DNA of 64,000 nucleotides from positions 4,976 through 68,975 of the forward strand of contig JAPORB010000244.1 in NCBI GenBank assembly GCA_026710425.1, in the 5' to 3' direction. How positions within the stretch are numbered: the first letter of the stretch is position 1; the number at the start of each line of letters is the position of its first letter. Shown one piece after another: positions 4,113-40,887 of the stretch. Source of the DNA: Gammaproteobacteria bacterium. Its GTDB lineage: Bacteria > Pseudomonadota > Gammaproteobacteria > Pseudomonadales > Pseudohongiellaceae. The notes under the pieces are model-generated. The model was not told the DNA's origin, did no database searches, and was given only the letters and a program-made list of their open reading frames with translations. The position numbers were made by a program, and so were the translations under genes.

Positions 4113-4335
4113 TGAAGGTCAGTATGTGCCGACCATATCGGTAATTGACAAGGTTGACTAGGAGTTTTAATTGTTCAGGAGGTAACAAGCCAGAGAAAAC
4201 GACTGCACCGATGTCAGCATGCAGCAGCTAAGGGTCAAGCAACAGCAATTCCCCACACGACTCACACTAATGCCAAGGAGCCGAAGACATAGTCTGACCC
4301 AAATCTTTTTCACCCGAGTCTCGGGCAAAAGCTAA

Positions 4336-4359
4336 GGCAGGATGTTTAGCCACCCTGCC
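4336..4359 (-). terminator. candidate intrinsic terminator downstream of the C-S lyase-like gene
   Basis: On the minus strand, GGCAGG-12 nt-CCTGCC is followed by TTAGCTTTTG, about 60 nt past the stop at 4419. The T tract is interrupted, so confidence is modest. Confidence 0.35.
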
Positions 4360-4418
4360 CTTTGCCTCAATCTGAAACAGCCTTTACAAATTCGGCTGGA
4401 TTGGCTCTTGAATGGTAA

Positions 4419-5789: not shown

Positions 5790-6028
5790 GGCGGTGCCCT
5801 CTTTTGTTATTTTCAAGTATGTTTATTGTTGCACTTTTTCTATTTATTGCTTAATTCTTTATCTGTTTCCAGCATTATTTCGATATTACTCTTGATCCTT
5901 CTTGCAGTTTATTTAAGTTTTTTACTGTGTCGCTTCTATATTGCTACTTCCCTGCCAGTATTTCCGGTCATTTTACCGATGCTGCAATAAGGTTAATCTT
6001 ATGCGCAACCGACATCATAATTTCCTGT

Positions 6029-7066
6029 CTAAAGCTTTCCCTCTGATTCCAGCCGTTCCTGTACTCGGGCCCCGCGCAGGATATTGACCATACCATAATT
6101 GCCCTCATGGCAGGCATATTCATATAGTAAGCCACCGACCTTGGTCATGGGCACGATTCCCTTGAAGGTATCGGTGTAAGTGGCCGGATCATCCACGATG
6201 AACTCATAATCCACGGTAAATTCATCCACTCGAGTAAAACGCTCGGTCAGAACCTTATCCCATGAAGTACCTGACCCACCAAAACTAAAAGACAATCCAT
6301 TGAAGTTTTTGGTGATAACAACCAGAGTATCTCCCTCCCAGTAACCCTTGGAGTCTCCTGTCCAGAGGCGGACATCATCGGAAAGTAACTCAATGACCTC
6401 GGCTGAATCATACAGCGGTACGATTCGGGCATCATGGATCATCTCTGTCAGCAACACGACCGTGTCCCTACTTTGAAAAATCTGTACATTATTGTTGTAT
6501 AAACTAGGCACGAAGGGAGGGCCGGCATTGAAACCAATAATACAGCGTTCCGACAACCCCCGATCTTCAGGACCATCAGTGCCGATTCCTCCTGCGGCAA
6601 TCCGGACCGGTCGGGATTCACCAGTGGATTCTCCGCCATAAACTCCCTGGCGTTCAATCGCTCCCTCCGCGAAGGGAGGCAGACGTCCGTTTTCCGGGTA
6701 GACAATATGGGATGTGCGGACCGTCTCACCTATGCCGGCATTTTCAACCCAGAAGTCATTGTAGGACTCATCAACTCCCTCAATATTCAGTGCCGAGTCG
6801 GACGCTTCATCAACAGCGACACGTCGTGCTTTGATTTCCTCGATCTCTCCAGTGGTCAGAAACTGTCGGTTTCCAAACTTACCAGGACGCTGCATAGGCA
6901 CATTGGATGAAAAGTTCCAAACCCCCTGTAGGTCAGGTTGGTTCCATTCCGTTCGCGGGACTGCATAATCTTCCTGTGCAAACACAGTCAACGAAAAGCA
7001 TGTGCCAGTCCACAGCAAACAACTGATTAGGGAAGTCTTTATTCTATACCAACCCGGGCTAGTCAT
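6029..7066 (-). CDS. secreted protein of unknown function
   Basis: 345-aa ORF with a signal peptide (SLISCLLWTGTCFSLTVFAQ/ED) and coding-like composition throughout. It has a distinctive C-terminal YEYACHEGNYGMVNILRGAR. I recognise no characterised family. Confidence 0.6.
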   Translation of the reverse strand: MTSPGWYRIKTSLISCLLWTGTCFSLTVFAQEDYAVPRTEWNQPDLQGVWNFSSNVPMQRPGKFGNRQFLTTGEIEEIKARRVAVDEASDSALNIEGVDESYNDFWVENAGIGETVRTSHIVYPENGRLPPFAEGAIERQGVYGGESTGESRPVRIAAGGIGTDGPEDRGLSERCIIGFNAGPPFVPSLYNNNVQIFQSRDTVVLLTEMIHDARIVPLYDSAEVIELLSDDVRLWTGDSKGYWEGDTLVVITKNFNGLSFSFGGSGTSWDKVLTERFTRVDEFTVDYEFIVDDPATYTDTFKGIVPMTKVGGLLYEYACHEGNYGMVNILRGARVQERLESEGKL

Positions 7067-11679: not shown

Positions 11680-12798
11680 ATGTGCAGAGTGAGCATCGGC
11701 AAATGCCTGTCGTGTCTGACCAGCCTGCTGGCTAGTTTATCACTGCTGTCAGCAGCCTCGGCACAGATCACACCCGAAGAGATCTCCATTGAAACCATGG
11801 CTGACCCCGGCCCTAACTGGTTTATCTCCAAATCTGAAATGGGTGGCTACATATTCGATGCCGAGTCCGGCGAAATGAAAGGTCTGCTCTCACTCTCTAG
11901 GCGCACCCCGGCAGTCACGACCTATGCTCCGCGAAAAGAGTTCTATGCCGCTGAATCCTACTTCGCTCGAGAGGTGCATGGTGAACGCACTGATCTGGTG
12001 GCCATTTACGATTTCGATAATCTTAGCCCGGTCGCCGAAGTAATCATCCCCAATCACATGGCCCGACTGCAGGTACGGAGTCATCTCGGTCTAATGAACA
12101 ACGGTCGCCATCTTGCTGTGATGAACATGAATCCGGGTCATTCAGTATCAATCGTTGATGTGCAGGACCGGGTCTTTATCTACGAAATATCCACGCCCGG
12201 CTGTGCGGTGATCATGCCAGTAGCCCAGAACGATTTTCTCCAGGTCTGCGGAGATGGCACGCTGCAGCTGATACAGCTGGACCTCAGTGGATTTGAAGAA
12301 AACCGGGTGCGCAGTGATGTTTTCTTTGATGTAATTGAGGATGCGGTCTTTGACCGAGCAACACCCAGTGCCAATGGCTGGATTCTGAGTACTCATGCCG
12401 GAGTAATATTCGAGGTGAGTACCGATGATGATGACATCCTGATCGAAGAAAGTTGGAGCTTGGTAAGCCCTGATGAAAGAGAATGGCGCCCTGGCGGGGA
12501 GGAATTCATTACCGCCCATAAGGAATACGGTCTGCTCTATGTGTTGATGCATGAAGGCAAGGTTGATACCCACCATGAGCCAGGCAGTGAGGTATGGGTT
12601 TACGATTTGACAACCCGCAACCGGGTTTTTCGTCTTGAGCTGGATGGAGCAGCACAAAGCGTCATGGTGACCCAGGAGGAAAATCCCAGGTTGATCCTTA
12701 ACGGAACAGATGGCGGCATTGATGTATATGATGCCCTCAGCTTTGCGCATCACCGGCACATTGTGACCCCCGGTTCTCATCACTTTGAGGATTTTTAA
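11680..12798 (+). CDS. mauB: TTQ-dependent amine dehydrogenase, heavy (large) subunit
   Basis: GGAG lies 8 nt upstream. It has a signal peptide (LLSAASAQ). It is collinear with methylamine dehydrogenase heavy chains as recalled (ARxxHGERTD, xDxxxLxP, WRPGG), and its size fits a seven-bladed propeller. It sits first in a mauB-E-D-A gene order. Confidence 0.85.
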   Translation: MCRVSIGKCLSCLTSLLASLSLLSAASAQITPEEISIETMADPGPNWFISKSEMGGYIFDAESGEMKGLLSLSRRTPAVTTYAPRKEFYAAESYFAREVHGERTDLVAIYDFDNLSPVAEVIIPNHMARLQVRSHLGLMNNGRHLAVMNMNPGHSVSIVDVQDRVFIYEISTPGCAVIMPVAQNDFLQVCGDGTLQLIQLDLSGFEENRVRSDVFFDVIEDAVFDRATPSANGWILSTHAGVIFEVSTDDDDILIEESWSLVSPDEREWRPGGEEFITAHKEYGLLYVLMHEGKVDTHHEPGSEVWVYDLTTRNRVFRLELDGAAQSVMVTQEENPRLILNGTDGGIDVYDALSFAHHRHIVTPGSHHFEDF

Positions 12799-12900
12799 AG
12801 CGCAGCGGCCAATACAGGCTAGTCACAGATCCACCGCTGAAAGATCGACAGCAAGACTTGTTATTCAAATTACTGATACCTGTTAATTTACCTAATCAAA

Positions 12901-13503
12901 GTGCAGACCCTAATAAACATTGCAACCATGGATCCAGCTCCTCACGCTCTGATTAGTATCTTCTTCTCGGTTCTGCTGCTCGGTGCTTCGCTTCATAAAT
13001 TTTCCGATCGTGTGCGGTTTCAGGGCATTGTGAGTTCCTACCGACTAGTCCCTGCGCCCCTGTTGGTAACAATCGCCCTGGGCATACCGGTATTGGAACT
13101 GGGCATTGGCCTGGCATGGCTGGTTGGCTTGCAGCCCAAGCTGGTGGCACTGGCAACTGCTTTATTGCTGACGACCTATACTCTGGCAATAGGTATCAAT
13201 ATCTTGCGCAACAACACCGAAATTGATTGTGGTTGCGGATTCAGTGGTACCACTGACAAGTCCACCAGCTACCAGACTTTGACGCTGGCCCTACCATTGC
13301 GCAACATACTGCTTATTGCTCTAGCATTACTGCCACTGTTGCCAACCACTCACAGACTGCTGGGCCTTGTCGATTACCTTAGCATTGCCTTGGGGAGCGT
13401 AGTAATGCTGTTGCTTTATGCGGCATTGAATCAGCTAATGGCCAACTGGCAAATCATCAATAACTGGCGAAGCGGTCGTGGCGAAGGTCCTGCTCATGGA
13501 TGA
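12901..13503 (+). CDS. mauE: methylamine utilisation protein MauE (membrane, TTQ-enzyme maturation)
   Basis: Polytopic membrane protein with the family hallmark IDCGCG and the expected position between heavy-chain and MauD genes. An alternative start is ATG 12928. Confidence 0.8.
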   Translation: MQTLINIATMDPAPHALISIFFSVLLLGASLHKFSDRVRFQGIVSSYRLVPAPLLVTIALGIPVLELGIGLAWLVGLQPKLVALATALLLTTYTLAIGINILRNNTEIDCGCGFSGTTDKSTSYQTLTLALPLRNILLIALALLPLLPTTHRLLGLVDYLSIALGSVVMLLLYAALNQLMANWQIINNWRSGRGEGPAHG

Positions 13504-14134
13504 GGCTTTAATTGTCTCGAATGTTCTGTTGTGGCTGGTGGTGGTTGTACTCGCCCTGCTGGTTTTTGCCCTCACCCGTCAAGTGGGTATATTGCATGAA
13601 CGGATTGCTCCTGCTGGAGCATTGCAACCAACCAACGGACCAAAAGTGGGAGAGTTGACGACAGCGATGGCACTGCGTGGTGTCGATGGTGGGGAAGTTA
13701 CCATTGGCGGAGAACACCAGGGAGGATTGGCCACTTTCGTACTATTCATCTCGCCAAGTTGCCCTGTTTGCAAGTCACTGGTTCCGACCGCCCGCTCTCT
13801 GGTTCATTCGGAAAGAAACCGGATGAGGCTTGTGTTTGCCAGCGATGGTGCTGAAACGCCGGAAGAGCTGAAGCAGCACGCCGATTACGTGAGTAATCTG
13901 CAAATCACGGCCTACCCTTATGTTATTTCCCAGGCCCTAGGGCTGCATTACCAGGTGAGCAAGTTGCCTTTTGCCTTGTTGATCAGCAGTGATGGGACTC
14001 TGAAAAGTAAAGGGCTGGTGAATACCAGAGAACACATGGAAAGTCTGATTGAAGCCATGGACAGTGGTATTAGCACAGTGCAGGAATTCACAGGAAAAAT
14101 ACAACCCAAAAACGCAATGGAACAAACCTCATGA
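13478..14134 (+). CDS. mauD: MauD, thioredoxin-fold disulfide oxidoreductase for light-subunit maturation
   Basis: N-terminal TM anchor followed by a thioredoxin fold with SPSCPVCK. The likely start is ATG 13496, which overlaps the mauE stop (ATGGATGA). The stop overlaps the mauA start (ATGA). Confidence 0.8.
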   Translation: MAKVLLMDEALIVSNVLLWLVVVVLALLVFALTRQVGILHERIAPAGALQPTNGPKVGELTTAMALRGVDGGEVTIGGEHQGGLATFVLFISPSCPVCKSLVPTARSLVHSERNRMRLVFASDGAETPEELKQHADYVSNLQITAYPYVISQALGLHYQVSKLPFALLISSDGTLKSKGLVNTREHMESLIEAMDSGISTVQEFTGKIQPKNAMEQTS

Positions 14135-14676
14135 TGCTTGACAAACTGGTTGACCGAACCTGCTATTGGGTGGATGAGAATGCTCGACAGACAGCACTTG
14201 CATTCGCCCGCCGACTGTCGCGCCGCAGTTTCCTATCCCGCCTTGGCTTATTCCTGGCTGGGGCCGCTTACTTTCCACTGTTGCCAGTAGCCCGTTCCTT
14301 TGCTCAGGATTCGGTACAGGAGGTCGGGGACCCACAAAGTTGTGACTACTGGCGCTACTGCGCTATGAGCGGCACCCTTTGTAGCTGCTGTGGCGGATCC
14401 TTTACTACATGTCCCCCCGGTTCCCAACCCTCTCCCATTACCTGGGTGGGAACCTGTCGCAATCCGGTAGATGGCCAAGATTACCTTATGTCCTATAACG
14501 ACTGCTGTGGCAAGGCAGTATGCGAGCGTTGTGGTTGCCACAATACCGAAGGCGACAAACCACTTTACTTCAACAGCAATAGCAACACCGTCATCTGGTG
14601 TTTTGGCACAGAAGACACCAGCTATCACTGTACCGTATCTCTAGTGTTGGGTACCGCTGACGAACAGGGGAACTGA
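14131..14676 (+). CDS. mauA: TTQ-dependent amine dehydrogenase, light (small) subunit precursor
   Basis: Long Tat-type leader (RRLSRRSFLSRLGLFLAGAAY...SFAQ). The Cys-rich mature domain CDYWRYCAMSGTLCSCCGG...TWVGTCRNP...DCCG...VIWCFG...YHCT matches methylamine and aromatic amine dehydrogenase light chains, including both TTQ Trp contexts (TWVG and IWCFG). Confidence 0.9.
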   Translation: MMLDKLVDRTCYWVDENARQTALAFARRLSRRSFLSRLGLFLAGAAYFPLLPVARSFAQDSVQEVGDPQSCDYWRYCAMSGTLCSCCGGSFTTCPPGSQPSPITWVGTCRNPVDGQDYLMSYNDCCGKAVCERCGCHNTEGDKPLYFNSNSNTVIWCFGTEDTSYHCTVSLVLGTADEQGN

Positions 14677-20046: not shown

Positions 20047-20123
20047 TGGTCGGGATGAGAGGATTTGAACCTCCGACCCCTGCCTCCCGAAGACAGTGCT
20101 CTACCAGGCTGAGCTACACCCCG
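20047..20123 (-). tRNA. tRNA-Pro (anticodon CGG)
   Basis: The reverse complement reads CGGGGTGTAGCTCAGCCTGGTAGAGCACTGTCTTCGGGAGGCAGGGGTCGGAGGTTCAAATCCTCTCATCCCGACCA. It has a 7-bp acceptor stem, D-arm GCTCAGCCTGGTAGAGC, anticodon stem CTGTC/GGCAG with loop TTCGGGA (CGG), T-arm GGAGGTTCAAATCCTCT and an encoded CCA, for 77 nt in total. Confidence 0.92.
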
Positions 20124-20493: not shown

Positions 20494-22161
20494 CTAGTAG
20501 ATACGGGAACGGTTCAGCTTGATATCCGCATTCCTCCACTGTGATTCAAACTGGCGCTTGGTGATATTTGCTTCCTGCTCTTTACCCTGAGCCTCAAGGG
20601 CCTGATACAGACCAAAGGTGGCCCAGCCGTTCTGCTGACTCCATTCCAGATCCTGTCGGTAAACATCTTCAGCTTCGGCAGCCCGACCCGCCTCCAACAG
20701 AGCTGCACCTAGGTACAACCGCATGGACTGATTCCAGTCCGGTGGCTCGGTATAGTTGAGGTTTTCCTGATACTCAACCGCATGGCCATAATGCATTATC
20801 GCTGCATCAAGATTACCCTTGGCCTCTTCAATCTCACCCCAAAGGGCATGCATAGCCAAGGTTAGGACATGGGAAGCAGGTGTTGGCCCTACATTGGGCT
20901 GGTCTACATCTTCAGCAGCAATTTGCTCACGGATATTCTGCAACTCGGCCTCGGCAGCTTCCAGATGAGCCTTGGCCACATGAGCGCTGCCCATGACAAA
21001 ACTCCAAATACCTCGGTGGTAAGGGGTGGCGGCCTTGGCACTGTTGGTCTCATGATTTGCATGAATTTTGTCCCACTGACCGAACACCTTATCCATGACC
21101 CATTCATGAGCTATTACTTTCGGTCCACGACGGTTGTGCGGATCGACAGTGGTCGCATTGAGGGAGGCCGCTTCCGAAGATGCCTGGTAGTTGCCCTGCA
21201 ACATATTGGCATAACGAACGAAGTCAAGTGCATGGGCCTTATGGCCCTTATGTGAGAGCGGATAGGTACCAATGTATGGAAGATTGGTATCACCCCATAT
21301 TTCAGCGAACTGGTCATCTACGATCTGCGATCTTACATTGATGTCGATGGCCTTTTCATACTCACCCACTCGGAGATAGATATGGCCTGGCATGTGGACC
21401 ATATGTCCACTGATAGGCATTGTGGCTTCCAGCTTCTGGGCTGAGGGCATGGCCAGCTCGGGCTGGGCTGACATTTCCATCAGATGGATATAGAGATGGT
21501 TGGCTCCAGGATGATCGTGCTCCAGCGTCATTGCTTTCTCAAGTGCTGCTTTGGCTTCGGCTGTACCTGGTTTGGCCGTACCATCAAGATTCCAGTAATC
21601 CCAACGGGAAGAGTTCATGTAAGACTCTGCGAACACAGTATGAATATCTGCATCATCTGGGTATTTTTGCGCCAACTGACGCATGGCATCAAGATAGGCC
21701 AAATCCCTTTCCCGGTTATCTGGTATGGCATCCTTGTTGTAAAGTACAAACATGGCGTTGACCAGATCCCGCTCCTTTTCCGTACCGTTGTTGGCCAGTT
21801 CGAGACCCTTGCGTATGGCATCCAAGCCTGTACCCATAGGATCGTCCGGCATATTGTTATAGCGACTATTGGGGTTAGGACCGATGGCATGAGCCATTCC
21901 CCAATAAGGCATGGGATGATCCGGTTCCAGTCTTGACGCTTCCTGATAGGAAGCAATGGACTCTGGAAAATAGAAACCCCAGGCCATGCGAAGACCCTGA
22001 TCAAAGAAACGTTGCGCCTGTTCCGACTTCAGTGAAACCGAGTAGCTGTAGTCGCCACCTCCCGGAACCATGACCGCCAGCGGTTCATCCTGCGCAACAC
22101 CAGATAAACTTGAAAGAAGCAGGCAACCCACTACGGTCATCTTTGCAAATAGATTTAGCAT
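20494..22161 (-). CDS. secreted TPR-repeat protein of unknown function
   Basis: 555 aa with a signal peptide (LLLSSLSGVAQD). It has repeated A/Y/L-rich helical pairs typical of TPR, for example the stretches ending AIDINVRSQIV and AEDVYRQDLEW. Confidence 0.6.
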   Translation of the reverse strand: MLNLFAKMTVVGCLLLSSLSGVAQDEPLAVMVPGGGDYSYSVSLKSEQAQRFFDQGLRMAWGFYFPESIASYQEASRLEPDHPMPYWGMAHAIGPNPNSRYNNMPDDPMGTGLDAIRKGLELANNGTEKERDLVNAMFVLYNKDAIPDNRERDLAYLDAMRQLAQKYPDDADIHTVFAESYMNSSRWDYWNLDGTAKPGTAEAKAALEKAMTLEHDHPGANHLYIHLMEMSAQPELAMPSAQKLEATMPISGHMVHMPGHIYLRVGEYEKAIDINVRSQIVDDQFAEIWGDTNLPYIGTYPLSHKGHKAHALDFVRYANMLQGNYQASSEAASLNATTVDPHNRRGPKVIAHEWVMDKVFGQWDKIHANHETNSAKAATPYHRGIWSFVMGSAHVAKAHLEAAEAELQNIREQIAAEDVDQPNVGPTPASHVLTLAMHALWGEIEEAKGNLDAAIMHYGHAVEYQENLNYTEPPDWNQSMRLYLGAALLEAGRAAEAEDVYRQDLEWSQQNGWATFGLYQALEAQGKEQEANITKRQFESQWRNADIKLNRSRIY

Positions 22162-22499
22162 TGGTCTCCCCTTTTAAAGGTTTTTCTGATTATTATCCTG
22201 TTTCCTCTCCTAATGCCCTATGGCAACCAAGCTAAGGTCAGGACCATTCAATTCGTGAATAGTATAACCTATGTGTGGGCTTCGCAGTGCTCTATATTAC
22301 GAAACAGGGACTTAAATAAATCCAAATGGTGATTCTCCAACCAACTCAGGCTGAACATGCCATCTCAACCATTGTGCCTATAATTATCACCAATCGTTAT
22401 ATTACGGTTTTTGGTTTAACAGAAGGAATGCAACGGTTCTGACCTGTCTGCTGTTCTCTGTTACCCTGTCCAGTCTCAATTATCAACAGAGGCAAACTC

Positions 22500-23120
22500 A
22501 TGAACGAACTTATAATGGAAGTCTTTAGCGACTACATCTGACCCTGGTGCTACCTCAGTACCGTGAGTATTGAAAAACTAAAGGCAAATTACCCCTTGTC
22601 TGTTCGCTGGGTTCACTTTCCCCTGCATCCGCAGACACCACCTGAGGGCCTACCCTTGGTTGAGTTGTTCGCTGGCAAGGATATTGGACCCATGCAACAA
22701 CGAATGCAATCGCTGATGGCCGAAGCCGGGTTGCCCTACAGCGAGCGCAGCCATACCTTTAACAGCAGGCTGGCCCAGGAATTGGGTAAATGGGCTGAAT
22801 CTCAGCCCAAGGGTGATGCCATCCATATTGCCCTTTTTCGTGCTTACTTTGTTGACAAAATTAACCTTCATGATATTGATTGCCTACTCACTATTGCCGA
22901 AAATATTGGTCTGAATCCTGCTGAGGCTAGGGCTGTTTTGGAACAAAGACTGTTCAAGGATTCCGTGGATGCTGACTGGCAACGGTCCCGACAACTGGGC
23001 ATCAACAGCGTACCGACATTTTATGCCAATGACCTGGTGGTTGTGGGATCTCAGCCCTATGAGGTGTTGCAGCGATTTATGGATAATTTGATTGACTCCG
23101 CCAAGGACACAAAATCATGA
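22500..23120 (+). CDS. DsbA/FrnE-family thiol oxidoreductase with an in-frame TGA (22539..22541) at the first CxxC position: candidate selenoprotein or fresh pseudogene
   Basis: ATG 22500 has AGAGG 7 nt upstream. Translation is MNELIMEVFSDYI-TGA-PWCYLSTVSIEKLK..., in the same frame as the track ORF 22563..23120. The rest is collinear with the DsbA_FrnE pattern (HFPLHP, NSRLAQE, FRAYF, LGINSVPTF, GSQPYE). The stop overlaps the next gene's ATG (ATGA). Confidence 0.6.
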
Positions 23121-23782
23121 GCCAAAAAACCGTATTAATCACTTGTGTCGACCGCTACATGGGCGTGGCGATACAACTAAAGTTTGAAGAACTGGGCTTT
23201 CGGATCATCACCGGCAACTACCCAATGCAATCCCAAAACGAGTGCGAAAAACTAATTGAGTCAGCAGGTGAGATCGATATCCTGGTAGCCAATCTGGCAG
23301 AAACACCAAGGGCCTCGCCAGTGCAGAGTATCGACAACAAGGACTGGAGTTATTTGTTCGATTGCCTGGTGCATCCACTGATGTATCTGGTGCGTGCTGT
23401 AACTCCACAAATGCTAGACCGTCAGTCGGGAAAAATTATTGCAATCACCAGTGCCGCCCCTTTGAAAGGTGTTCCCAACCATGCATCCTACTGTGCAGCC
23501 AGAAGTGCACAGAACGGATTCATAAAGGCGGTTGGCATGGAACTGGCCCGGTCCAATATACAGATCAACGCCATTGCTCAGAACTACATTAACAACGACA
23601 CTTATTATCCTGATCAGTTGCTTAATGAGGCAAAATTTGTTGACCACCTTAATCGAAACTTACCGACTCAAAAAGTCGCTGCCGCAGCGGAAACTGCCGA
23701 ATTGGCTGCTTACTTGGCCAGTGATAACTGCACGCACATGGTAGGTCAGATCCTGCCTCTGGCGGGAGGCTGGATAACCTGA
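23117..23782 (+). CDS. halohydrin dehalogenase-like SDR-fold lyase (would normally be auto-annotated as SDR oxidoreductase)
   Basis: There is no TGxxxGxG motif; instead T-CVDR-Y-M-G (T-x4-[F/Y]-x-G) is present. The catalytic pattern is S-x12-Y-x3-R (ITS-AAPLKGVPNHAS-Y-CAA-R). SGKIIAITSA, AIAQNY and C-terminal LAGGW are collinear with HheC as recalled. Confidence 0.75.
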   Translation: MSQKTVLITCVDRYMGVAIQLKFEELGFRIITGNYPMQSQNECEKLIESAGEIDILVANLAETPRASPVQSIDNKDWSYLFDCLVHPLMYLVRAVTPQMLDRQSGKIIAITSAAPLKGVPNHASYCAARSAQNGFIKAVGMELARSNIQINAIAQNYINNDTYYPDQLLNEAKFVDHLNRNLPTQKVAAAAETAELAAYLASDNCTHMVGQILPLAGGWIT

Positions 23783-23812
23783 GTATCGCAGCCCGTTTGC
23801 CGACCAGACATC

Positions 23813-25051
23813 TTAAGGCCCAGCCACAAGGTTGGCATCATGGAGGCCACCTATTTCGGCTTGGCTTAGCCCCAGCAGATCACTGAGTATTTCATCGGTG
23901 TGCTGGCCCAGCAAGGGTGCCGGCGCATTAGTCTCCCGCATTCTCGCTCCAAAATCCAATGGCTGATCCGGCACCACATAGCGACCAATCCCCGGCTGAT
24001 CAATGCTTTGAAATAGGGGATTCTCCACAGAACAATCGGCATCGCTCTTCACAAGTTGCTCAATAGTCTGATACGGCCCCCAACACGCACCCGCAGTGTT
24101 AAGGGCCAAACAAACTTCTTCAAAGTCTCTGGCTTCAAACCATTTGGCAAAAATGACTCTAATAGCTTCCCGAGCCTCAAACCGCTGGCTTTCCTGATCA
24201 AAATCCAGATTTAGTTCCTCCTCCAGTTTGTGGATTATCTGTTCTGACTGCGTTACCTTGACCAGTGCCTGCCATTGATTGGGACTTACACCTACCACCA
24301 TCACACGGCCACCGTCCCGGCACTGAAAATCATGACCGAAGGTACCAAACACATGATTACCCATCGGCTTTCTTCCCTGTTGATTGATCTGGACTTCAGC
24401 AAGGTAACCGAGATGTCCCAGTGTGGCCATAGCCACATCGGCCAATGCCAATCGGATAAACTGTCCTTCTCCACTCAGGCGGCGATGTCGCTCAGCAGCC
24501 AGTAGCCCAAGGGCGATTTGCTGACCTGCGATCACATCCCAGGCAGGGAAAGGATTGTTGATTGGCTTGACTCCGTCGCCACTCAGAAATGGCAGACCGA
24601 CTCGACTGTTTACCGTGTAATCCAGTGCCGTACCACCGTGGCGGTCACCAGTCAGATTCAGGTAAATTAAATCTTCCCGCTTTCTGCGCAGGACCTCATC
24701 AGCAAGCCAGCCCCGCGCCGGAAAGTTGGTCAGAAAGATACCGGCATTATCACCTGTGGCGGTTATTAGATCAGTCAGCAATTCCCGCCCCCGGGGCTGT
24801 CGAAAATCAACAGCAATGGACCGCTTGCCCTTGTTCAGACAGTGCCAATACAGACTTTTACCTTCGGTATTGACAGGCCAGCGATGATAGTCGATACCAC
24901 CACCAATTTGATCGAAGCGAATGACATCAGCACCAAGTTGCGCCAGTGTCATGCCACCGGAAGGTGCAGCGATAAAGGCACTGCCTTCCATAATGCGTAA
25001 GCCTTCTAGCAGATTTTGCATAAGGATTATGGGAGTCTCGACATACAGCAA
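23813..25051 (-). CDS. family III CoA-transferase, 2-methylfumaryl-CoA isomerase (Mct)-like
   Basis: LEGLRIMEGSAFIAAPSGGMTLAQLGADVIRFD, GKRSIAVD, FLTNFPARGWL and LLAAERHRRLSGEGQ are collinear with the CaiB/BaiF family, and closely with Mct-type members as recalled. The likely start is ATG 25021 (MQNLLEGL...). Confidence 0.85.
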   Translation of the reverse strand: MLYVETPIILMQNLLEGLRIMEGSAFIAAPSGGMTLAQLGADVIRFDQIGGGIDYHRWPVNTEGKSLYWHCLNKGKRSIAVDFRQPRGRELLTDLITATGDNAGIFLTNFPARGWLADEVLRRKREDLIYLNLTGDRHGGTALDYTVNSRVGLPFLSGDGVKPINNPFPAWDVIAGQQIALGLLAAERHRRLSGEGQFIRLALADVAMATLGHLGYLAEVQINQQGRKPMGNHVFGTFGHDFQCRDGGRVMVVGVSPNQWQALVKVTQSEQIIHKLEEELNLDFDQESQRFEAREAIRVIFAKWFEARDFEEVCLALNTAGACWGPYQTIEQLVKSDADCSVENPLFQSIDQPGIGRYVVPDQPLDFGARMRETNAPAPLLGQHTDEILSDLLGLSQAEIGGLHDANLVAGP

Positions 25052-25757: not shown

Positions 25758-28202
25758 TCATCTTGACGATAATGCAAAGCCCGCACTGTTGTGTTGTTCC
25801 ATCATCTCCTTGGCAATGACCCTGATAGCCAAGACCTCCTCTGTACCCTCAAAAATCGAAAGCACCCTCGCATCAACAAAATACCGACTCACCGCCGTTT
25901 CTTCCGCATAGCCCATTCCACCATGTAGTTGCATGGCTTCACGGGTTACCCACTCAGCAGCCCGGCAGGCAAACAGCTTCACCAGACTGGCCTCCATCTG
26001 CCCCTTACCCGCATCCATTAATCTGGCCACGGCATAGCTGAACTGGCGACAGGCAGTAATCGTGGCTAGCATTCGCGACAGTTTGAGTCGGGTCAGCTGG
26101 TAGTCTCCCAATGTATGGTTGAAAACCCTCCGCTGGGCGGTGTACTGCAAGGCCTCATCAAAAGCGGCTTGCATAAGCCCGGTGGCACGGGCTGCGGTTT
26201 GCAGTCTGCCACCAGCAAAGCCCGCCATGGTGTAGTAAAAACCCTTGCCCTGACCCTCAGCCCCGCCAAGTAAGCCCTCGGTCGGCACAAAATAGTCATC
26301 AAAAAATAGGGTATAGGAATGCATACCGCGATAACCAAGGGTTGCAATCGCTTTACCGCTAAATACACCTCCCTGAGGTTGACTATGGCTGAACTCATGT
26401 CCCTTAAAAGTCGGTTTTTCCACCAGAAACAGGCTCAGACCCCGATGCCCATTGGGATCCTGACCGGTACGGGCCAGCACTAAGACCAATTCCGAACGGC
26501 CTGCAAAGGTACACCAGGTTTTGCTGCCATTGAGCAACCAACCACCCTCACAGGCACTGGCACGCAAGGATACTGCTGCAACATCAGAACCGGTATCCGG
26601 TTCGGTGATGGAAATCGCACACAGTTTTTCACCACTGGCCAGCATAGGCAACCAGGTTTGTTGTTGCTCTTGTGTACCGCCAGCCAGCAGAGCACGAGCA
26701 GCTATTTCAGGCCTGGTAATCAGACTGCCCGCCGCACCAAGGGAACCGCGTGAAAGCTCCTCGGTCACAATAATCATGCTCATGCTGTCGGGCTTTTCAT
26801 CCGGCTGCAAACCACCAAATCGCTCGGGAATACAGGTCCCAAAGCATCCCAGATTAGCAGCAGTTTCAATTAGGGTGTCGGGTACATCCTGGTCCTGTCG
26901 ATGAATTGCTTCTGCCAATGGTGCCACATCAGCCTCGGCAAAGCGCTGGAAGTTACTGCGCACTTGCTCATAGCTTTCATCCAAGCCTGATTCAAGACAA
27001 GTGATGCCAGCCTCAATACAGCGTGTAGCCAGCTGCTCAAATCCATCGGCTGACTTCAGCAAGTCATTCAAATCATCATCAGCCAAGAGTGCCCGAACCT
27101 CTTGCGAATCCAAACCAAGCATCGCACCTTCAGTTACAAAACTGCTAAGGATTGATTTGATAGTCTCAACACAGAATCCGAGGGCGCAGGGAGCAAGCAG
27201 CGGAGCCTGTGGAGATGTCTTGGCATGCTCCAACAGAACTTGCGCTGCTTTCAGCTCTGCCGAGACGACAGCAAGGGTGTAGCAGCGACTTTGTTGTTGG
27301 TCAAATAGGTTTTCATCCAGTTTGCCTTTGCGGTACATATCCTCTTTGGCTGCATGCACGGCAGTTTGCAGCTGGTGCGATACCTTCTCCTCCAAGACAT
27401 AACTTGCCCGGTCCAGTTGTATCCGCTCTGGGGACCTGTGAGCACTTGGTAAATCATGATGAGTCTTCTTCTTTAGTGTCGTTGGTCTATGGTGAGGAGC
27501 ATTAAACCCGCTGTAAGGTACATCTTTCGATATTTCAGGATACCAAGGCTTGCCCCAATCCTGATCTGGATTGCTCATCATGACACTAACAAAGACTGGC
27601 ACCAAAGAATCAAGAATTTTAGTTCCATCACAAACTTGATTTCGATTCCAGTTACTATCCCATGTTGCTCCACCATGGACTAACTGATTTCTCAGTACAT
27701 TTAATCTTCTGAAAATCTTTATTAATGCTTTCTCTATGTTGTGCCCTTTCATCATTTTGTGAAAATAAACATTGTCATTTTCAAAATGAGATTCCCAACT
27801 TTTATAACTATTTAGTCCGTGTTGAGAATCCCAAAACCGCCTGAATATAAATCGATTTCCCATTAAATCTTGTATAAGGATAGAGAATTTTTTCAGATAA
27901 CCTTTAATTATATTTTGTGCATCCCTAGTCACAATATCCGTTAAAAATGATTCTCGGATTTTAAATTCTTTTCCTCTCTCACAATTAGTATCTGCATGAA
28001 GAGCATCAAAAGCTATCCATAGAAAAATATATTTTCCATCACTATCATCTGTATCTTTGGCGCGCTTAATCCAACTCAAAGCACGTCTAATGCGATGACT
28101 GAAGTCCTGTTTGAAAGCATGTTTGTTCTCATCATACTTCTTTTTTAGCTCGTCATAGCTCGGTGGTTTTTCCATGGAATATTTACCTCGAATATATTTC
28201 AT
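25758..28202 (-). CDS. long acyl-CoA dehydrogenase (methylsuccinyl-CoA dehydrogenase-like architecture) preceded in the same ORF by a low-GC HEPN-like module
   Basis: The C-terminal ~555 aa form an ACAD (TEPDTGSDVAA, WCTFAG, GGRLQTAARA, IFEGTEEV) with a helical N-terminal extension. Residues 1 to ~230 are a different, AT-rich module containing LRNQLVHGG (Rx4H). The best start is ATG 28178, with GAGGT 10 nt upstream. An internal alternative is ATG 27338, which has a poorly spaced AGAGG. Confidence 0.7.
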   Translation of the reverse strand: MKYIRGKYSMEKPPSYDELKKKYDENKHAFKQDFSHRIRRALSWIKRAKDTDDSDGKYIFLWIAFDALHADTNCERGKEFKIRESFLTDIVTRDAQNIIKGYLKKFSILIQDLMGNRFIFRRFWDSQHGLNSYKSWESHFENDNVYFHKMMKGHNIEKALIKIFRRLNVLRNQLVHGGATWDSNWNRNQVCDGTKILDSLVPVFVSVMMSNPDQDWGKPWYPEISKDVPYSGFNAPHHRPTTLKKKTHHDLPSAHRSPERIQLDRASYVLEEKVSHQLQTAVHAAKEDMYRKGKLDENLFDQQQSRCYTLAVVSAELKAAQVLLEHAKTSPQAPLLAPCALGFCVETIKSILSSFVTEGAMLGLDSQEVRALLADDDLNDLLKSADGFEQLATRCIEAGITCLESGLDESYEQVRSNFQRFAEADVAPLAEAIHRQDQDVPDTLIETAANLGCFGTCIPERFGGLQPDEKPDSMSMIIVTEELSRGSLGAAGSLITRPEIAARALLAGGTQEQQQTWLPMLASGEKLCAISITEPDTGSDVAAVSLRASACEGGWLLNGSKTWCTFAGRSELVLVLARTGQDPNGHRGLSLFLVEKPTFKGHEFSHSQPQGGVFSGKAIATLGYRGMHSYTLFFDDYFVPTEGLLGGAEGQGKGFYYTMAGFAGGRLQTAARATGLMQAAFDEALQYTAQRRVFNHTLGDYQLTRLKLSRMLATITACRQFSYAVARLMDAGKGQMEASLVKLFACRAAEWVTREAMQLHGGMGYAEETAVSRYFVDARVLSIFEGTEEVLAIRVIAKEMMEQHNSAGFALSSR

Positions 28203-36405: not shown

Positions 36406-37974
36406 TTGACCAAACAATACTACGAAAGCCTCAAGCACTATGGTCTACCCGAATTTGATCGAAGCTGGGGTCTGATCAGAAGGGGAATCGAAAAGGAGAG
36501 CTTGCGGGTCTCACCGGAAGGTTATATCTCTGACGGCCCCCACCCGGCTGCATTGGGCTCGGCCCTGACGAATCCCTACATCACCACTGATTTTGCCGAG
36601 GCTCTGCTGGAGTTCATCACACCGGTCCATACCGATATAGATGAGTGTCTCGACATGCTGAAGAATATTCACCATTTCAGCCTTCAAAACCTTGACGCTA
36701 ACGAATTGCTATGGGTGGCAAGCATGCCCTGCCCGCACTCAAGCGAAGTGAATATTCCCATAGCTGAATATGGCAACTCAAATATCGGTCGCCTTAAGAA
36801 CCTGTATCGACGCGGTCTGCATGTTCGTTATGGCAGTCTGATGCAAGTCATCTCCGGTATCCACTACAACTTTTCAATGCCTGCAGAGTTCTGGGAACCG
36901 TTCCAGCAGCTCTGCGGTGACAGCCAGTCCTTGTCGGACTTCAAAACCACTAGGTATTTGCACCTGATTCGTAATTTTCATCGCTATTCCTGGTTGCTGG
37001 TGTATCTGTTCGGTGCCTCACCTGCAGCCTGCAACTGTTTTGTCGAAGGTAGAAATCATGGCCTGCAGCAGTTCGATGCAGTCAGCCTATATCTTCCCGA
37101 AGCCACTTGCCTGCGCATGGGAAATCTTGGTTACAAGAGCGAAGCTCAGGAATCGCTATTTGTGTGTTATAACGAACTACAGACCTATGTTGACTGTCTC
37201 TACCAAGCTATGTATGAACCCTACCCTGAGTACGATGAACTGGGACAAAAATGCGATGGGGATTACCAGCAAATCAACACCTGTTTGTTACAGCTGGAGA
37301 ATGAGTTCTACAGCACAATCCGCCCCAAACCTAAAATCAACAGCGGTGAACGACCGCTGGATGCATTGATTAAATATGGCATTGAGTACGTGGAAGTGCG
37401 TGCCCTTGACCTTAATCCCTATCTACCCGTTGGTATTGACGCACAGGATATTCGTTTTCTGGACACCTTTCTGTTGCATTGTCTGCTTAGCGACTCGGCA
37501 CGCTGTGATCAGCGGGAGTTTTTCGAAGTGGCGACCAACCTGGCTGCGGTGGTAGAACGGGGTCGTGATCCTGAGCTGCAACTAAATCGGGGCGACAAAA
37601 TGCTGGGTATACGAGACTGGGCGGAACAATTGCTAGATGACATGGCTCATAGTGCCACCTTGCTGGATCAGGTTCACCATAGCCAGACCTACAACGAATC
37701 AGTACGGCTACAGCAGGCCAAGGTGCGCGATGCCAGCCTGACACCTTCTGGTCGTATGCTGAAACAGATGCGAGAGCAGGAACTTTCCTTTTTTGAACTT
37801 GCCATGAATCTCTCAAAATCCGCCAAAAAAACTTTGCAAAATTGCAGACCTGATGATGAGGTTATGGCACATTTCGCCGATGCTAGTGCTATATCGCACC
37901 AGCGCCAAAAGGAAATTGAAGAAGCTGACACCCAAAGTTTTGATGAGTTCCTGGAGATTTGGAACCGCAAATAG
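36406..37974 (+). CDS. gshA: glutamate--cysteine ligase (gammaproteobacterial type)
   Basis: 522 aa. RGIEKESLRV, TPVHTDIDE, ISGIHYNFS and YIEVRALD-type blocks are collinear with GshA. The track start is TTG 36406, and the start codon is uncertain. Confidence 0.9.
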   Translation: MTKQYYESLKHYGLPEFDRSWGLIRRGIEKESLRVSPEGYISDGPHPAALGSALTNPYITTDFAEALLEFITPVHTDIDECLDMLKNIHHFSLQNLDANELLWVASMPCPHSSEVNIPIAEYGNSNIGRLKNLYRRGLHVRYGSLMQVISGIHYNFSMPAEFWEPFQQLCGDSQSLSDFKTTRYLHLIRNFHRYSWLLVYLFGASPAACNCFVEGRNHGLQQFDAVSLYLPEATCLRMGNLGYKSEAQESLFVCYNELQTYVDCLYQAMYEPYPEYDELGQKCDGDYQQINTCLLQLENEFYSTIRPKPKINSGERPLDALIKYGIEYVEVRALDLNPYLPVGIDAQDIRFLDTFLLHCLLSDSARCDQREFFEVATNLAAVVERGRDPELQLNRGDKMLGIRDWAEQLLDDMAHSATLLDQVHHSQTYNESVRLQQAKVRDASLTPSGRMLKQMREQELSFFELAMNLSKSAKKTLQNCRPDDEVMAHFADASAISHQRQKEIEEADTQSFDEFLEIWNRK

Positions 37975-38171
37975 CAGACACCCACAACCTAGTCCAGCAC
38001 AGCATAGTCATCTCCTAGGTCGGCCTGCAATGCCTGCTATCGGCCAATACGCTGTAGTGAGCCAGAAAAATTTATGCGAGGAGGCCGCTAAGACTAGTAG
38101 TTGATTCTTTAAGTGTTACGAGACTAGGGCGGTAGTGTAAAATCACCAATCGCAAGTTTGGGAGAGAATCC

Positions 38172-38681
38172 ATGACAATATCGTTGCCCGTTAACCGAAT
38201 GATTAACCTCGCTATGTTTCTAGTCACGGTCATTACCATTGGCATAGTACTCTATATGGAGCATGTGTTGTTGATGTCGCCCTGTGGTCTATGCATTACT
38301 CAGCGAGTGTTCGTCATTCTCTGCGGCCTTACCTGTCTGGTATCGGCCTTGCACAATCCTGGCACACAGGGACAGAAACTGTACGCCTTCGGCGCAGCTT
38401 CAATGTGTATTTTTGGGAGCTACTTCGCTGGTCGCCAGATCTGGCTGCAGCATCTACCGGAAGATCAGGTCCCTGCCTGCGGGCCAGGACTGGGTTATCT
38501 TTATGAGAACTTTCCGTTCATTGAAGTGCTGAATTTTCTGCTCAAAGGCGATGGCAATTGCGCGGAAGTCCAGTACCGCCTGCTGGGACTGAGCATTCCG
38601 GAAATGTCCATGCTGGCCTTTGTTGCCCTCTTCTGCACCTGCCTCTATGTAGCCTTTCGTCACACAGCCCAGCCAGTCTGA
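38172..38681 (+). CDS. dsbB: disulfide bond formation protein B
   Basis: Four TM helices, the first periplasmic-loop CxxC (PCGLC), and second-loop cysteines (PACGP...GNC). Confidence 0.85.
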   Translation: MTISLPVNRMINLAMFLVTVITIGIVLYMEHVLLMSPCGLCITQRVFVILCGLTCLVSALHNPGTQGQKLYAFGAASMCIFGSYFAGRQIWLQHLPEDQVPACGPGLGYLYENFPFIEVLNFLLKGDGNCAEVQYRLLGLSIPEMSMLAFVALFCTCLYVAFRHTAQPV

Positions 38682-38683
38682 GG

Positions 38684-40144
38684 CTACTGACCACGCTGCC
38701 AGCGAAAGAATCTTTCCATCAGAGGGAAATACTTCTCCGGCAATCTGGCATTGCGCCAGGCATTGGCCGCAAACTTGTTGGCTTCCGACAGGGTCGGATA
38801 AATGTGTGTGACTGCAGCGATCTTCTTCAATCCCAGTCCATGGGTCATGGCAAGCACAAACTCACCTATCAGCTCACTGGCATGATGGCCCACAATGGTC
38901 ACCCCAAGAATTCGGTCCCGACCCGGCACGGTCAATACCTTGATGAACCCATGAGCCTCTCCCTCGGCCAGGGCGCGATCCAAATGATTCATATCGAAAC
39001 GGGTTACCTCGAAGGCCACCCCCTGTTCCCTTGCCTCGGTTTCACTAAGACCGACTCGGGCAACTTCCGGGTCAGTGAAAGTAGCCCAGGGCACAGCACG
39101 GTAATTGGCCTTGAGCCGCCACCAACTTCCCATCAATGAATTTATACTGGCAAAAAAAGCCTGATATGATGCCATGTGAGTGAACTGATAGGGACCAGCG
39201 ACATCGCCACAGGCATAAATGCTCGGATAAGCTGTTTGCATGGCGTGATTGACTTGTACTGTGCCCTGAGATGTCAGTGGCATGTCCAGTGCTTCCAGTC
39301 CTAGTCCTTCCACATTGGCCTTGCGGCCAATCGCCAACAACACCTTATCAAACCCCAAGCAAACCTTGGCATTGAATCCTTCAGCTTCCATCATATAACC
39401 GCTATCGTCCTTGAAGAACCGCATGGGCCGGTACCCGGTCAGGACCTTTATCCCCTGTTCCCGAAATTTTGCGGTGACAGTTTCAGAGACTTCCGAATCT
39501 TCCCGCGGCATAATGCGCGATGCCAAATCGACCTGAGCCACCTTGGATCCGAGATGACTGAACGCCTGCGCCATTTCACATCCAATCGGACCGCCACCAA
39601 CCACCAGCATCCGCTTCGGTAATTCCCGCAAGGACCAGAGTGTATCCGAGGTCAGGTAGTCCACTTGCTCCAAGCCTGGAATTTGCGGCACAAGCGGTCT
39701 GCCACCACTAGCCAGAATAATGGCGCGGGTACTGATGGATCTGCCGTTCACTTCTACTGTCCAGGGCGAGCTGACGCGCGCATCCCCGCTAATGCAATCC
39801 ACGCCCAAATCGCTAAATCGCTCCACGGAATCATGGGGTTCAATGATCTTGATCACACTCTGCACACGATCCATCACTGCTGCAAAATCCACGCTACCTG
39901 CTGCTCCATTGATGCCGTATTCCCGGGCCCGACGCAGGTATGACATGATACGACCGCTGCGTAGCAAGGTCTTACTCGGCACGCAACCAGTATTCAGGCA
40001 ATCACCACCCATTTTATGCTTTTCAATCAGAATAGTTCCGGCTTTTGCGCCACTGGCAATTATTGCGGCGACCAGACCGGCCGAGCCGCCACCGATAATC
40101 ACCACATTGGCATTAAATTTTCTGGGCTTGCGAAAAGACTTCAT
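38684..40144 (-). CDS. class I FAD-dependent pyridine nucleotide-disulfide oxidoreductase (lipoamide dehydrogenase/mercuric reductase-like)
   Basis: GGGSAGLVAA, the redox-active disulfide GGDCLNTGCVPSK, an NAD Rossmann motif VVGGGPIGCEMAQ, and the dimerisation-domain motif HIYPTLSE. The ATG overlaps the stop of the upstream TVP38 gene (ATGA). Confidence 0.85.
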   Translation of the reverse strand: MKSFRKPRKFNANVVIIGGGSAGLVAAIIASGAKAGTILIEKHKMGGDCLNTGCVPSKTLLRSGRIMSYLRRAREYGINGAAGSVDFAAVMDRVQSVIKIIEPHDSVERFSDLGVDCISGDARVSSPWTVEVNGRSISTRAIILASGGRPLVPQIPGLEQVDYLTSDTLWSLRELPKRMLVVGGGPIGCEMAQAFSHLGSKVAQVDLASRIMPREDSEVSETVTAKFREQGIKVLTGYRPMRFFKDDSGYMMEAEGFNAKVCLGFDKVLLAIGRKANVEGLGLEALDMPLTSQGTVQVNHAMQTAYPSIYACGDVAGPYQFTHMASYQAFFASINSLMGSWWRLKANYRAVPWATFTDPEVARVGLSETEAREQGVAFEVTRFDMNHLDRALAEGEAHGFIKVLTVPGRDRILGVTIVGHHASELIGEFVLAMTHGLGLKKIAAVTHIYPTLSEANKFAANAWRNARLPEKYFPLMERFFRWQRGQ

Positions 40145-40887
40145 TTTCTTGCTCTCTTGATAGCATTGATGAGTAGCTTGGCCGCCAGGGGCGAGACCCC
40201 GACCAGCACTAGGGATAGAATCACTGAAGGGCTAACCAATCCCGATAGGGAGGTAATCTGCGCGAGTTCGGAACCGGCGTTTACATAAACCGCCGTGATC
40301 AGCAACATCCCTATCTGGCTGACCAAATAGAAAGGAATCACTCCGATAGGAGTCAACCCCATAAGCAGATTGACCACAAAAAACGGGAAAATAGGCACCA
40401 TACGAATACTGAACAGATAAAAATTACCATCCTGTTCAATGCCTCGGTTAATGGGGGCAAGGTAATTGCCAAAGCGCGATTGCACCCAGTTTCTTAACAG
40501 TGTTCTTGATAGCAGAAATGCTAAGGTTGCACCGATTGAACTGGCAAACGATGCCAGTACTGTGCCCCAGATCAGACCAAAAATGGCCCCGCCGGTGAGA
40601 GTGATGATCAGGGCACCTGGAATGGACAGAGCGGCAATCAGCAGGTAGGTCAGAAAATATATTGCTAAAGCCAGCGCAAAATGATCATTTCGGAAGGTCT
40701 GCAGGGCAGAAAGACGAGACTGCACATATTCCAACGACAAAAATCGGCCTAGATCAAACTGGAAAAAAATGACCAGGACCAGCCCGATGCAGAGCGCAAT
40801 CATAATTTTCACCAGAGATGATTTGCTCATCCTGCATTCCTTTGCAGCTTTAAGTCGGTTCCAGGCATGAATTGTCGTCCGTTCCAC
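40141..40887 (-). CDS. TVP38/TMEM64 (DedA-related) family membrane protein
   Basis: Polytopic membrane protein containing FRMVPIFPFFVVNLLMG-type SNARE-associated motifs. The likely start is the internal Met (MSKSSLVKIM) near 40830. Confidence 0.75.
   Translation of the reverse strand: MERTTIHAWNRLKAAKECRMSKSSLVKIMIALCIGLVLVIFFQFDLGRFLSLEYVQSRLSALQTFRNDHFALALAIYFLTYLLIAALSIPGALIITLTGGAIFGLIWGTVLASFASSIGATLAFLLSRTLLRNWVQSRFGNYLAPINRGIEQDGNFYLFSIRMVPIFPFFVVNLLMGLTPIGVIPFYLVSQIGMLLITAVYVNAGSELAQITSLSGLVSPSVILSLVLVGVSPLAAKLLINAIKRARK

Follow-up and report, generated by a model that had tools for sequence, protein, structure and literature searches.

A predicted halohydrin dehalogenase gene coupled to a FrnE-type DsbA selenoprotein gene in marine Gammaproteobacteria

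Introduction

Halohydrin dehalogenases (HHDHs) use a Ser-Tyr-Arg triad to interconvert haloalcohols and epoxides, and in the reverse direction they open epoxides with halides or other small anions (PMC4989007). Two motifs, T-x4-[F/Y]-x-G and S-x12-Y-x3-R, separate the family from the short-chain dehydrogenases/reductases (SDRs) (PMC4989007, a review; PMC11976700), in which the corresponding patterns are T-[G/A]-x3-[G/A]-x-G and S-x10-14-Y-x3-K (PMC11976700, a 2025 study). In one described arrangement, the hheC-echA haloalcohol pathway, the partner of the dehalogenase is an epoxide hydrolase that removes the epoxide product, and just two known HHDH genes adjoin a gene for such a hydrolase (PMC4989007). 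Here we describe a candidate HHDH gene with a partner of another kind. It lies in a stretch of 64,000 nt (hereafter the window) from a gammaproteobacterium of the Pseudohongiellaceae (contig JAPORB010000244.1, positions 4,976 to 68,975), where it directly follows a gene for a DsbA-like selenoprotein.

Selenoproteins of the ‘DsbA 1’ family carry the pfam01323 domain and a UxxC motif, and were described from 63 Global Ocean Sampling sequences as a marine-enriched group (Zhang and Gladyshev 2008, PMC2398784). A 2026 review lists the family as ‘DsbA-like protein form 1’, with its function uncharacterised. The nearest solved relative of the window's DsbA-like protein is FrnE of Deinococcus radiodurans (PDB 5cnw, E 1e-20), a cytoplasmic DsbA-like disulphide oxidoreductase. 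FrnE has a role in the oxidative-stress tolerance of Deinococcus, and its C-terminal tail carries a second Cys pair.

Our reading of the locus, which we hold with considerable though not full confidence, is that a cofactor-independent HHDH is encoded as the second cistron after a FrnE-type DsbA selenoprotein, that the two genes are coupled through an ATGA overlap, and that this arrangement belongs to marine Gammaproteobacteria.

Results

The second cistron encodes a member of the HHDH family

The gene in question and its two diagnostic motifs are located as follows.

23117..23782, + strand: halohydrin dehalogenase (HHDH) family gene, 221 aa (phmmer against the PDB, tree, AlphaFold2/Foldseek)
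23141..23164, + strand: HHDH motif 1, T9-CVDR-Y14-M-G16, which fits T-x4-[F/Y]-x-G
23450..23503, + strand: HHDH motif 2, S112-x12-Y125-x3-R129 (catalytic triad), which fits S-x12-Y-x3-R

The 221-residue product begins with MSQKTVLITCVDRYMGVAI, and its residues 112–129 read S-AAPLKGVPNHAS-Y-CAA-R. A nucleotide-binding loop of the form TGxxxGxG or T-G-x3-G-x-G was not present when the translation was inspected. In an alignment of 39 relatives that reaches down to 30% identity, no variation occurs at S112, Y125, R129 or G16, and at least 90% of the sequences have T9 (Ser in a few others); Y14 is invariant in 22 of 22 close relatives. Because the motif residues are conserved to this extent, the match to the published patterns is not a matter of chance. 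Motif 1 probably lines the nucleophile and halide pocket, replacing the glycine-rich NAD(P) loop of SDRs. Loss of NAD(P) binding is predicted from this motif and from the behaviour of the Pfam SDR models: adh_short and adh_short_C2 match the protein only from residue 22 or 41 on, leaving residues 1–21, with the N-terminal cofactor loop, uncovered.

Comparison with solved structures placed the protein among the HHDHs. The best phmmer match in the PDB was HheD2 (7b73; E 3.6e-50, 174 bits), followed by HheD8 (8xxb; E 1.7e-48, 168 bits), HheB (4zd6 and 5b12; about 1e-41, 143 bits), HheA and HheC; the best true SDR reached only about 86 bits, approximately half the HHDH scores. Against a library of 1.84 billion representatives, the HHDH product drew matches at E≤1e-30 from only 34 clusters. 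For a neighbour-joining tree, 42 of these representatives were aligned with five close members of the clade and three HHDHs of solved structure. In this distance tree, which is without support values, nearly all Ser-Tyr-Arg sequences with a non-glycine motif 1 form one radiation, with the Lys- and Gly-rich SDRs as outgroup. Inside the radiation, a separate subclade unites the window protein with its close relatives; its neighbours are the clades of HheD2/HheD8 and of HheB. An AlphaFold2 model of the protein (predicted local distance difference test 94.8, predicted template modelling (TM) score 0.92) has an SDR-type Rossmann fold with HHDH-like architecture. When the model was compared with the PDB by Foldseek, the nine top matches were chains of HheD8, HheD2 and HheB (TM 0.94–0.97, root-mean-square deviation (rmsd) 1.1–1.3 Å); SDRs ranked later, mostly with TM 0.82–0.90 and rmsd 2–4 Å.

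The alternative that this is a genuine NAD(P)-dependent SDR, with Arg129 and the unusual N-terminal loop merely incidental, draws on the Pfam matches and on the names given in databases. More than 1580 proteins match the product at E≤1e-20, and the best 120 are 69–76% identical and nearly all 221 aa long. Their public names are ‘SDR family oxidoreductase’ (NCBI) and ‘2-keto-3-deoxy-L-fuconate dehydrogenase’ (JGI). The Gly-rich loop is absent, however, and the Pfam match leaves out precisely the cofactor-binding N-terminus. None of the 206 NCBIfam SDR models reached its curated cutoff, no NCBIfam model proved specific for the product, and the neighbours by sequence, tree and structure are all HHDHs. 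We therefore regard a true dehydrogenase as very improbable indeed. By the agreement of sequence, profiles, tree, predicted fold and conservation, the ORF at 23117..23782 is a member of the HHDH family and not a true SDR, and the enzyme is probably a halohydrin dehalogenase in its type of activity as well.

These results bear on an original prediction, made from the letters of the stretch alone, which had pointed out both fingerprints and the missing TGxxxGxG in this 221-aa ORF, had named the two motifs as published discriminators of HHDHs, and had expected automatic annotation to call the product an SDR oxidoreductase. Translation, the two cited papers and the NCBI and JGI names agree with it on each point. 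Its preference for an HHDH over an SDR is likewise borne out by the phmmer ranking, the Foldseek neighbours and the tree, where the protein falls within the HHDH radiation and not inside a genuine SDR clade.

Two cysteines set the clade apart. Cys10 (23144..23146), inside motif 1, and Cys126 (23492..23494), directly after the catalytic Tyr, are invariant in the window HHDH clade; the corresponding residues of HheD2 and HheB are Gln/Asn and Ser. A redox switch formed by the two residues and serviced by the DsbA-like protein was considered and rejected, as both are equally conserved where the DsbA gene is missing, for example in Minwuia (P0096).

The first cistron encodes a DsbA 1 selenoprotein

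Upstream of the HHDH gene, three elements define a selenoprotein gene.

22500..23120, + strand: FrnE/DsbA-like selenoprotein gene, 206 codons including the selenocysteine (Sec) codon 14, without signal peptide (translation with in-frame TGA)
22539..22541, + strand: UGA codon read as Sec, in a U-P-W-C redox motif (TGA conserved at the aligned position)
22555..22573, + strand: hairpin UCAGUAC-CGUGA-GUAUUGA, resembling a Sec insertion sequence (SECIS) and beginning 16 nt after the UGA (+16 to +34)

Translation from the ATG at 22500 gives MNELIMEVFSDYI-TGA-PWCYLSTV..., in which TGA replaces the first Cys of a CPWC motif. The mechanical list of ORFs had started the gene at a GTG at 22563, and gene callers report only a 174-aa product that begins after the UGA and is without the redox motif. 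Coding sequence is in frame and conserved on both sides of the TGA at 22539, and PF01323 (DSBA) matches the full product with E 9e-30. As a signal peptide is absent, the protein is predicted to be cytoplasmic.

The codon was compared in two sets of loci: 80 related genome loci fetched via the HHDH (81 including the window), and 80 metagenome loci fetched via the DsbA-like protein by peptide patterns that exclude the Sec position itself. TGA occupies this position in all 62 of the genome loci that carry the DsbA gene and in 80/80 of the metagenome loci, that is, in 142/142 and never as Cys. With a PF01323 domain and a TGA where CxxC proteins have their first Cys, the upstream protein is, by domain and motif, a member of the known DsbA 1 selenoprotein family. 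The original prediction had called it a ‘(U/C)xxC’ protein; the thiol-redox motif stands, and the in-frame TGA decides for UxxC and removes the Cys option.

The hairpin is marked by its variation. In 60 distinct sequences, each of the positions +6 to +10 after the UGA is confined to one codon (AGT ACC GTG AGT ATT, entropy 0), and at +5 CTC is used almost without exception (entropy 0.21), compared with 1.6–2.4 bits of codon entropy at other, equally conserved positions of four- to sixfold degeneracy. The seven core pairs are paired in at least 92% of 52 distinct sequences from both locus sets. Compensatory changes were found as well, from U-A to C-G at one pair in four sequences and from A-U to G-C or U-A at another in two. 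Suppressed synonymous variation and compensatory pairs thus support a bacterial SECIS-like hairpin downstream of the UGA. A search of the window with Rfam at gathering thresholds and with ARAGORN returned no SECIS family and no tRNA-Sec, only a tRNA-Pro.

Two further observations concern this protein. Residue 183 (23046..23048) is Ser in the window (VVGSQPYE); in nearly all orthologues it is a conserved third Cys (VVGCQPYE). The UPWC family also extends well beyond marine bacteria, into soil and other metagenome loci (L110–L164), where the gene recurrently adjoins a family III CoA-transferase, an α/β-hydrolase, a luciferase-like monooxygenase and a cyclase-like protein, the last three judged by eye.

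The two genes overlap and are kept together in marine Gammaproteobacteria

The junction of the two reading frames holds two features.

23117..23120, + strand: ATGA start/stop overlap, in which the HHDH ATG (23117) lies over the DsbA TGA (23118..23120)
23103..23107, + strand: AAGGA, a Shine-Dalgarno-like site for the HHDH gene within the DsbA coding sequence, read from the sequence 9 nt before the ATG

The DsbA gene ends with AAA TCA TGA and the HHDH gene opens with ATG AGC, an arrangement that we propose couples translation of the two. Among the 80 genome loci, a DsbA gene lies upstream on the same strand in 62 and within 330 nt in 57. The genes overlap in 23 of these 57 (by 1 nt in 14, 4 nt in 7 and 11 nt in 2). 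The paired genomes are those of marine Gammaproteobacteria, namely Pseudohongiella, OM182, SAR86 and unclassified Pseudomonadales.

For the window's own locus (22300..23900), no RNA run holds the exact sequence, which was found only in DNA runs from sponge metagenomes and in runs of one other organism. Transcription was therefore followed in an orthologous locus on a TARA scaffold (L093). Co-transcription is indicated there: metatranscriptome contigs, assembled from three runs, span the junction from the DsbA stop to the HHDH start, and RNA coverage reaches zero immediately before the DsbA gene. Scans for promoters and terminators gave nothing above chance.

Neighbouring genes

The pair is flanked by a divergent gene on one side and a convergent gene cluster on the other.

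20047..20123, − strand: tRNA-Pro (CGG), the only tRNA in the window (Rfam, ARAGORN)
20494..22161, − strand: tetratricopeptide repeat (TPR) protein, conserved divergent neighbour of the DsbA gene (in 45 loci)
23813..25051, − strand: family III CoA-transferase, first gene of a convergent β-oxidation-like cluster (PF02515, E 5.6e-57)
25758..28202, − strand: acyl-CoA dehydrogenase (ACAD) (Pfam ACAD domains from residue 408)

The CoA-transferase gene adjoins the HHDH gene in 62 of the 81 loci, and it is also found beside the Sec-DsbA gene in loci that have no HHDH. In gammaproteobacterial loci the convergent cluster comprises the CoA-transferase, a MaoC-type hydratase, an SDR, an ACAD, a thiolase-like protein and often an acyl-CoA ligase (50–62 loci).

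This context raises the question of whether the HHDH fold serves a different natural reaction here, such as epoxide opening with nitrite, cyanate or thiocyanate, or the conversion of an epoxy- or halo-acyl-CoA that feeds the β-oxidation cluster. The range of anions that HHDHs accept is wide, and the literature describes the physiological role of these enzymes as open (PMC4989007, PMC11976700). The CoA-transferase, ACAD, MaoC hydratase, thiolase and acyl-CoA ligase genes recur beside the HHDH gene, and Cys10 and Cys126 are peculiar to this clade. The CoA cluster is nevertheless on the opposite strand and so not co-transcribed with the pair. Halogenated substrates are indicated, moreover, by the context in the SAR92 group. 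In three loci there (L079, L080 and L081, about 4000..6660), genes for a haloalkane dehalogenase (PDB 4mj3 matched with E 7e-88) and an ordinary SDR precede, in a row on one strand and without DsbA, the gene for an HHDH orthologue 65% identical to the window protein. This row looks like a candidate organohalide operon, and it is the best independent hint that the HHDH clade acts on halogenated compounds. A different reaction is thus possible but doubtful in our estimation.

Some peculiarities of the window's neighbourhood are recorded here. Its ACAD ORF is 814 aa long, compared with mostly 553–585 aa in orthologous loci, and the extra N-terminal portion of approximately 250 aa has no Pfam match and holds an R-x4-H (RNQLVH) HEPN-like motif. 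The window has no counterpart of the MaoC hydratase gene that lies between the CoA-transferase and ACAD genes in 49 other loci. The window is otherwise ordinary chromosome, with rho, hemB, ubiD and gshA, and its exact sequence occurs in sponge metagenomes. A methylamine-dehydrogenase-like cluster (11680..14676, + strand) encodes a heavy chain, MauE, a thioredoxin-like protein and a light chain. The region 36406..40887 holds gshA (glutamate-cysteine ligase) and, on the other strand, genes for a pyridine-nucleotide disulphide oxidoreductase and then a VTT/DedA-family membrane protein.

Discussion

The preferred reading, an HHDH translated from the second cistron of a DsbA selenoprotein operon, has to be weighed against several observations that count against it. 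About 16 HHDH loci with sufficient upstream sequence have no DsbA gene; such loci come from Alphaproteobacteria (Minwuia, Rhodospirillaceae), Burkholderiales and the SAR92/Porticoccaceae/Cellvibrionales group, with one from an unclassified gammaproteobacterium and one from a Pseudohongiella. Seen from the other gene, only 16 of the 70 Sec-DsbA loci with enough downstream sequence have the HHDH gene; among the 54 without it, some are marine and keep the other neighbours and many are from soil. In five loci (L011, L013, L018, L077 and L078) the operon is broken by a gene for a PutA-like protein (by eye) of approximately 1200 aa, which stands in the opposite orientation between the two. No selA, selB, selC, selD or tRNA-Sec was found within the 64-kb window. 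The coverage at L093 fits a bicistronic transcript, with the reservation that assembled contigs can contain DNA. The hairpin is small and not more stable than shuffled sequence (z −0.64), so that its support is evolutionary and not thermodynamic. Finally, the natural substrates of HHDHs are unknown (PMC4989007).

The counts from the DsbA side rule out an obligatory pairing. As each gene is common without the other, the pairing is lineage-specific. The original prediction had asked whether the pair is conserved in other genomes; adjacency is indeed kept in 57/80 loci, often with overlap, and obligatory linkage is not. Its ATGA overlap is confirmed at 23117..23120. Its statement that the coupling had not been characterised also holds, for we found no paper on a DsbA-HHDH pairing in the HHDH or selenoproteome literature that was searched, and a joint full-text search with both terms returned a single, irrelevant paper.

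Such independent occurrence is what would be expected if the two proteins were co-regulated parts of a stress or catabolic island and chemically independent, with the selenoprotein acting as a general cytoplasmic disulphide reductase or isomerase, like Deinococcus FrnE, and the HHDH acting alone on halohydrins and epoxides. That FrnE is the nearest characterised relative of the DsbA-like protein agrees with this, as does the setting of HHDH genes in Burkholderiales, where the neighbours are peroxiredoxin-like and photolyase-family-like (by eye). That the genes overlap in 23 loci and stay adjacent in several orders nevertheless suggests more than chance synteny. We consider chemical independence a serious contender, at somewhat below even probability. 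Neither it nor a different natural reaction is exclusive of the preferred reading.

In the operon as we picture it, the HHDH would retain the SDR-type fold, with the NAD(P) site turned into an anion pocket. Following the known HHDH chemistry (PMC4989007), Ser112 would hydrogen-bond the substrate hydroxyl, and Tyr125, its pKa lowered by Arg129, would take the hydroxyl proton. The resulting alkoxide would displace the vicinal halide to give an epoxide, the halide leaving through the pocket lined by motif 1; in reverse, a small anion or halide would open the epoxide. The first cistron would supply a cytoplasmic U-P-W-C DsbA, its UGA presumably read through with the help of the hairpin 16 nt downstream, and the operon would stand tail-to-tail with the CoA-transferase, acyl-CoA dehydrogenase, hydratase and thiolase cluster. 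We infer that the HHDH is active as an enzyme and that the thiol or selenol chemistry of the selenoprotein serves the same task, which could be disposal of a reactive epoxide, or repair of damage by hypohalous acid and organohalides.

A closer partnership can also be envisaged, which makes specific the suggestion of the original prediction that the pair could be a two-step unit for haloalcohol or epoxide detoxification: the HHDH would make the epoxide, the selenolate of Sec14 would attack it and Cys17 would resolve the adduct, so that the selenoprotein would replace the epoxide hydrolase of HheC-type systems. Translational coupling and conserved adjacency speak for such a unit. The epoxide that is formed does harm, and its removal has to keep pace with its formation (PMC11976700). 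No epoxide hydrolase gene adjoins the HHDH gene in the gammaproteobacterial loci examined, in keeping with the rarity of that arrangement among known HHDH genes, and the strict retention of Sec fits a need for a strong nucleophile. On the other side, the DsbA and HHDH genes are each frequent alone, and the TPR and CoA-transferase genes stay beside the Sec-DsbA gene where the HHDH gene is missing (L087, L095, L097, L099 and L104). Furthermore, we found no precedent for a DsbA-fold enzyme that opens epoxides in the literature searched. Taken together, these points make a two-step unit unlikely. The specific proposal of selenol-based epoxide disposal, with Sec14 opening the epoxide and Cys17 resolving the Se-alkyl adduct to a selenenyl-sulphide, is more speculative still and in our view improbable; an alkene may be released in the process, by a logic analogous to that of vitamin K epoxide reductase. 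If true, it would provide a reductive, hydrolase-free route from halohydrin to harmless product. It would also give the DsbA 1 selenoprotein family its first assigned function and the marine HHDHs a natural role.

Both protein families were known, and what is new is the operon that links them, which we did not find reported in the literature searched. The enzyme itself is a new addition to a known family, and less novel than the original prediction implied, marine HHDHs having already been published and assayed. HHDHs are valued as industrial biocatalysts and their natural roles are an acknowledged open question. The window clade is abundant in ocean bacteria and has transcripts in marine metatranscriptomes. 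The operon is therefore a lead on two open functions at once, the physiology of HHDHs, at whose natural role it may hint, and that of the DsbA 1 selenoprotein. The locus also exposes two systematic annotation errors: an HHDH bears the name of an SDR or of a dehydrogenase of the fuconate pathway, and a selenoprotein is called as an N-terminally truncated DsbA without its active site.

Comparison with known systems

The closest characterised enzymes are HheD2 (gamma proteobacterium HTCC2207) and HheD8 (Thauera aminoaromatica). Like the window protein, they have chains of approximately 220–230 aa with both HHDH motifs and the Ser-Tyr-Arg triad; full-length identity is 40% and 39%, respectively, and their structures superimpose on the model with TM 0.94–0.97 and rmsd 1.2 Å. 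They differ in motif 1, which is T-Q-A-D-x-F-M-G in D-type enzymes and T-C-V-x-R-Y-M-G in the window clade, in having no counterpart of Cys126, and in their position in the tree, where the window protein lies outside the D clade. Published additions to the D-type are 57–95% identical to verified HheD enzymes (HheD–HheD6; PMC4989007), whereas HheD2 shares 37–45% identity with all 82 loci. Given the 40% identity of the window protein, its clade, on a separate branch, is not D-type in the published sense. HheB (Corynebacterium sp. N-1074, PDB 4zd6, B-type) shares with the window protein the Tyr in motif 1 and the length class, at 37% identity. As HheD2 and HheB are 47% identical to one another, closer than either is to the window clade, the distance from this clade to B or D is no smaller than that between B and D. 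Five B-type (HheB3–B7) and four E-type (HheE–E4) enzymes have been listed from ‘marine metagenome’, most with verified activity (PMC4989007, Table S1), and share the ocean-metagenome origin of the window clade. Marine data contain this clade in abundance, so that it may be identical with one of these groups, which were compared by description.

The upstream protein resembles FrnE in having a CPWC-type motif at the extreme N-terminus and no signal peptide; it has Sec in place of the first Cys, and it ends at residue 206, without the C-terminal tail of approximately 50 residues. With the DsbA 1 family it has in common the PF01323 domain, the UxxC motif and marine occurrence, and linkage to an HHDH gene goes unmentioned in both papers on that family (the 2008 paper and the 2026 review).

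For the pair as a whole, the nearest described system is the hheC-echA pathway of Agrobacterium radiobacter AD1, in which, as at the window locus, an HHDH gene shares an operon with the gene for a second protein. The partners differ: in hheC-echA it is an α/β-hydrolase, and at the window locus it is a thioredoxin-fold UxxC selenoprotein encoded upstream.

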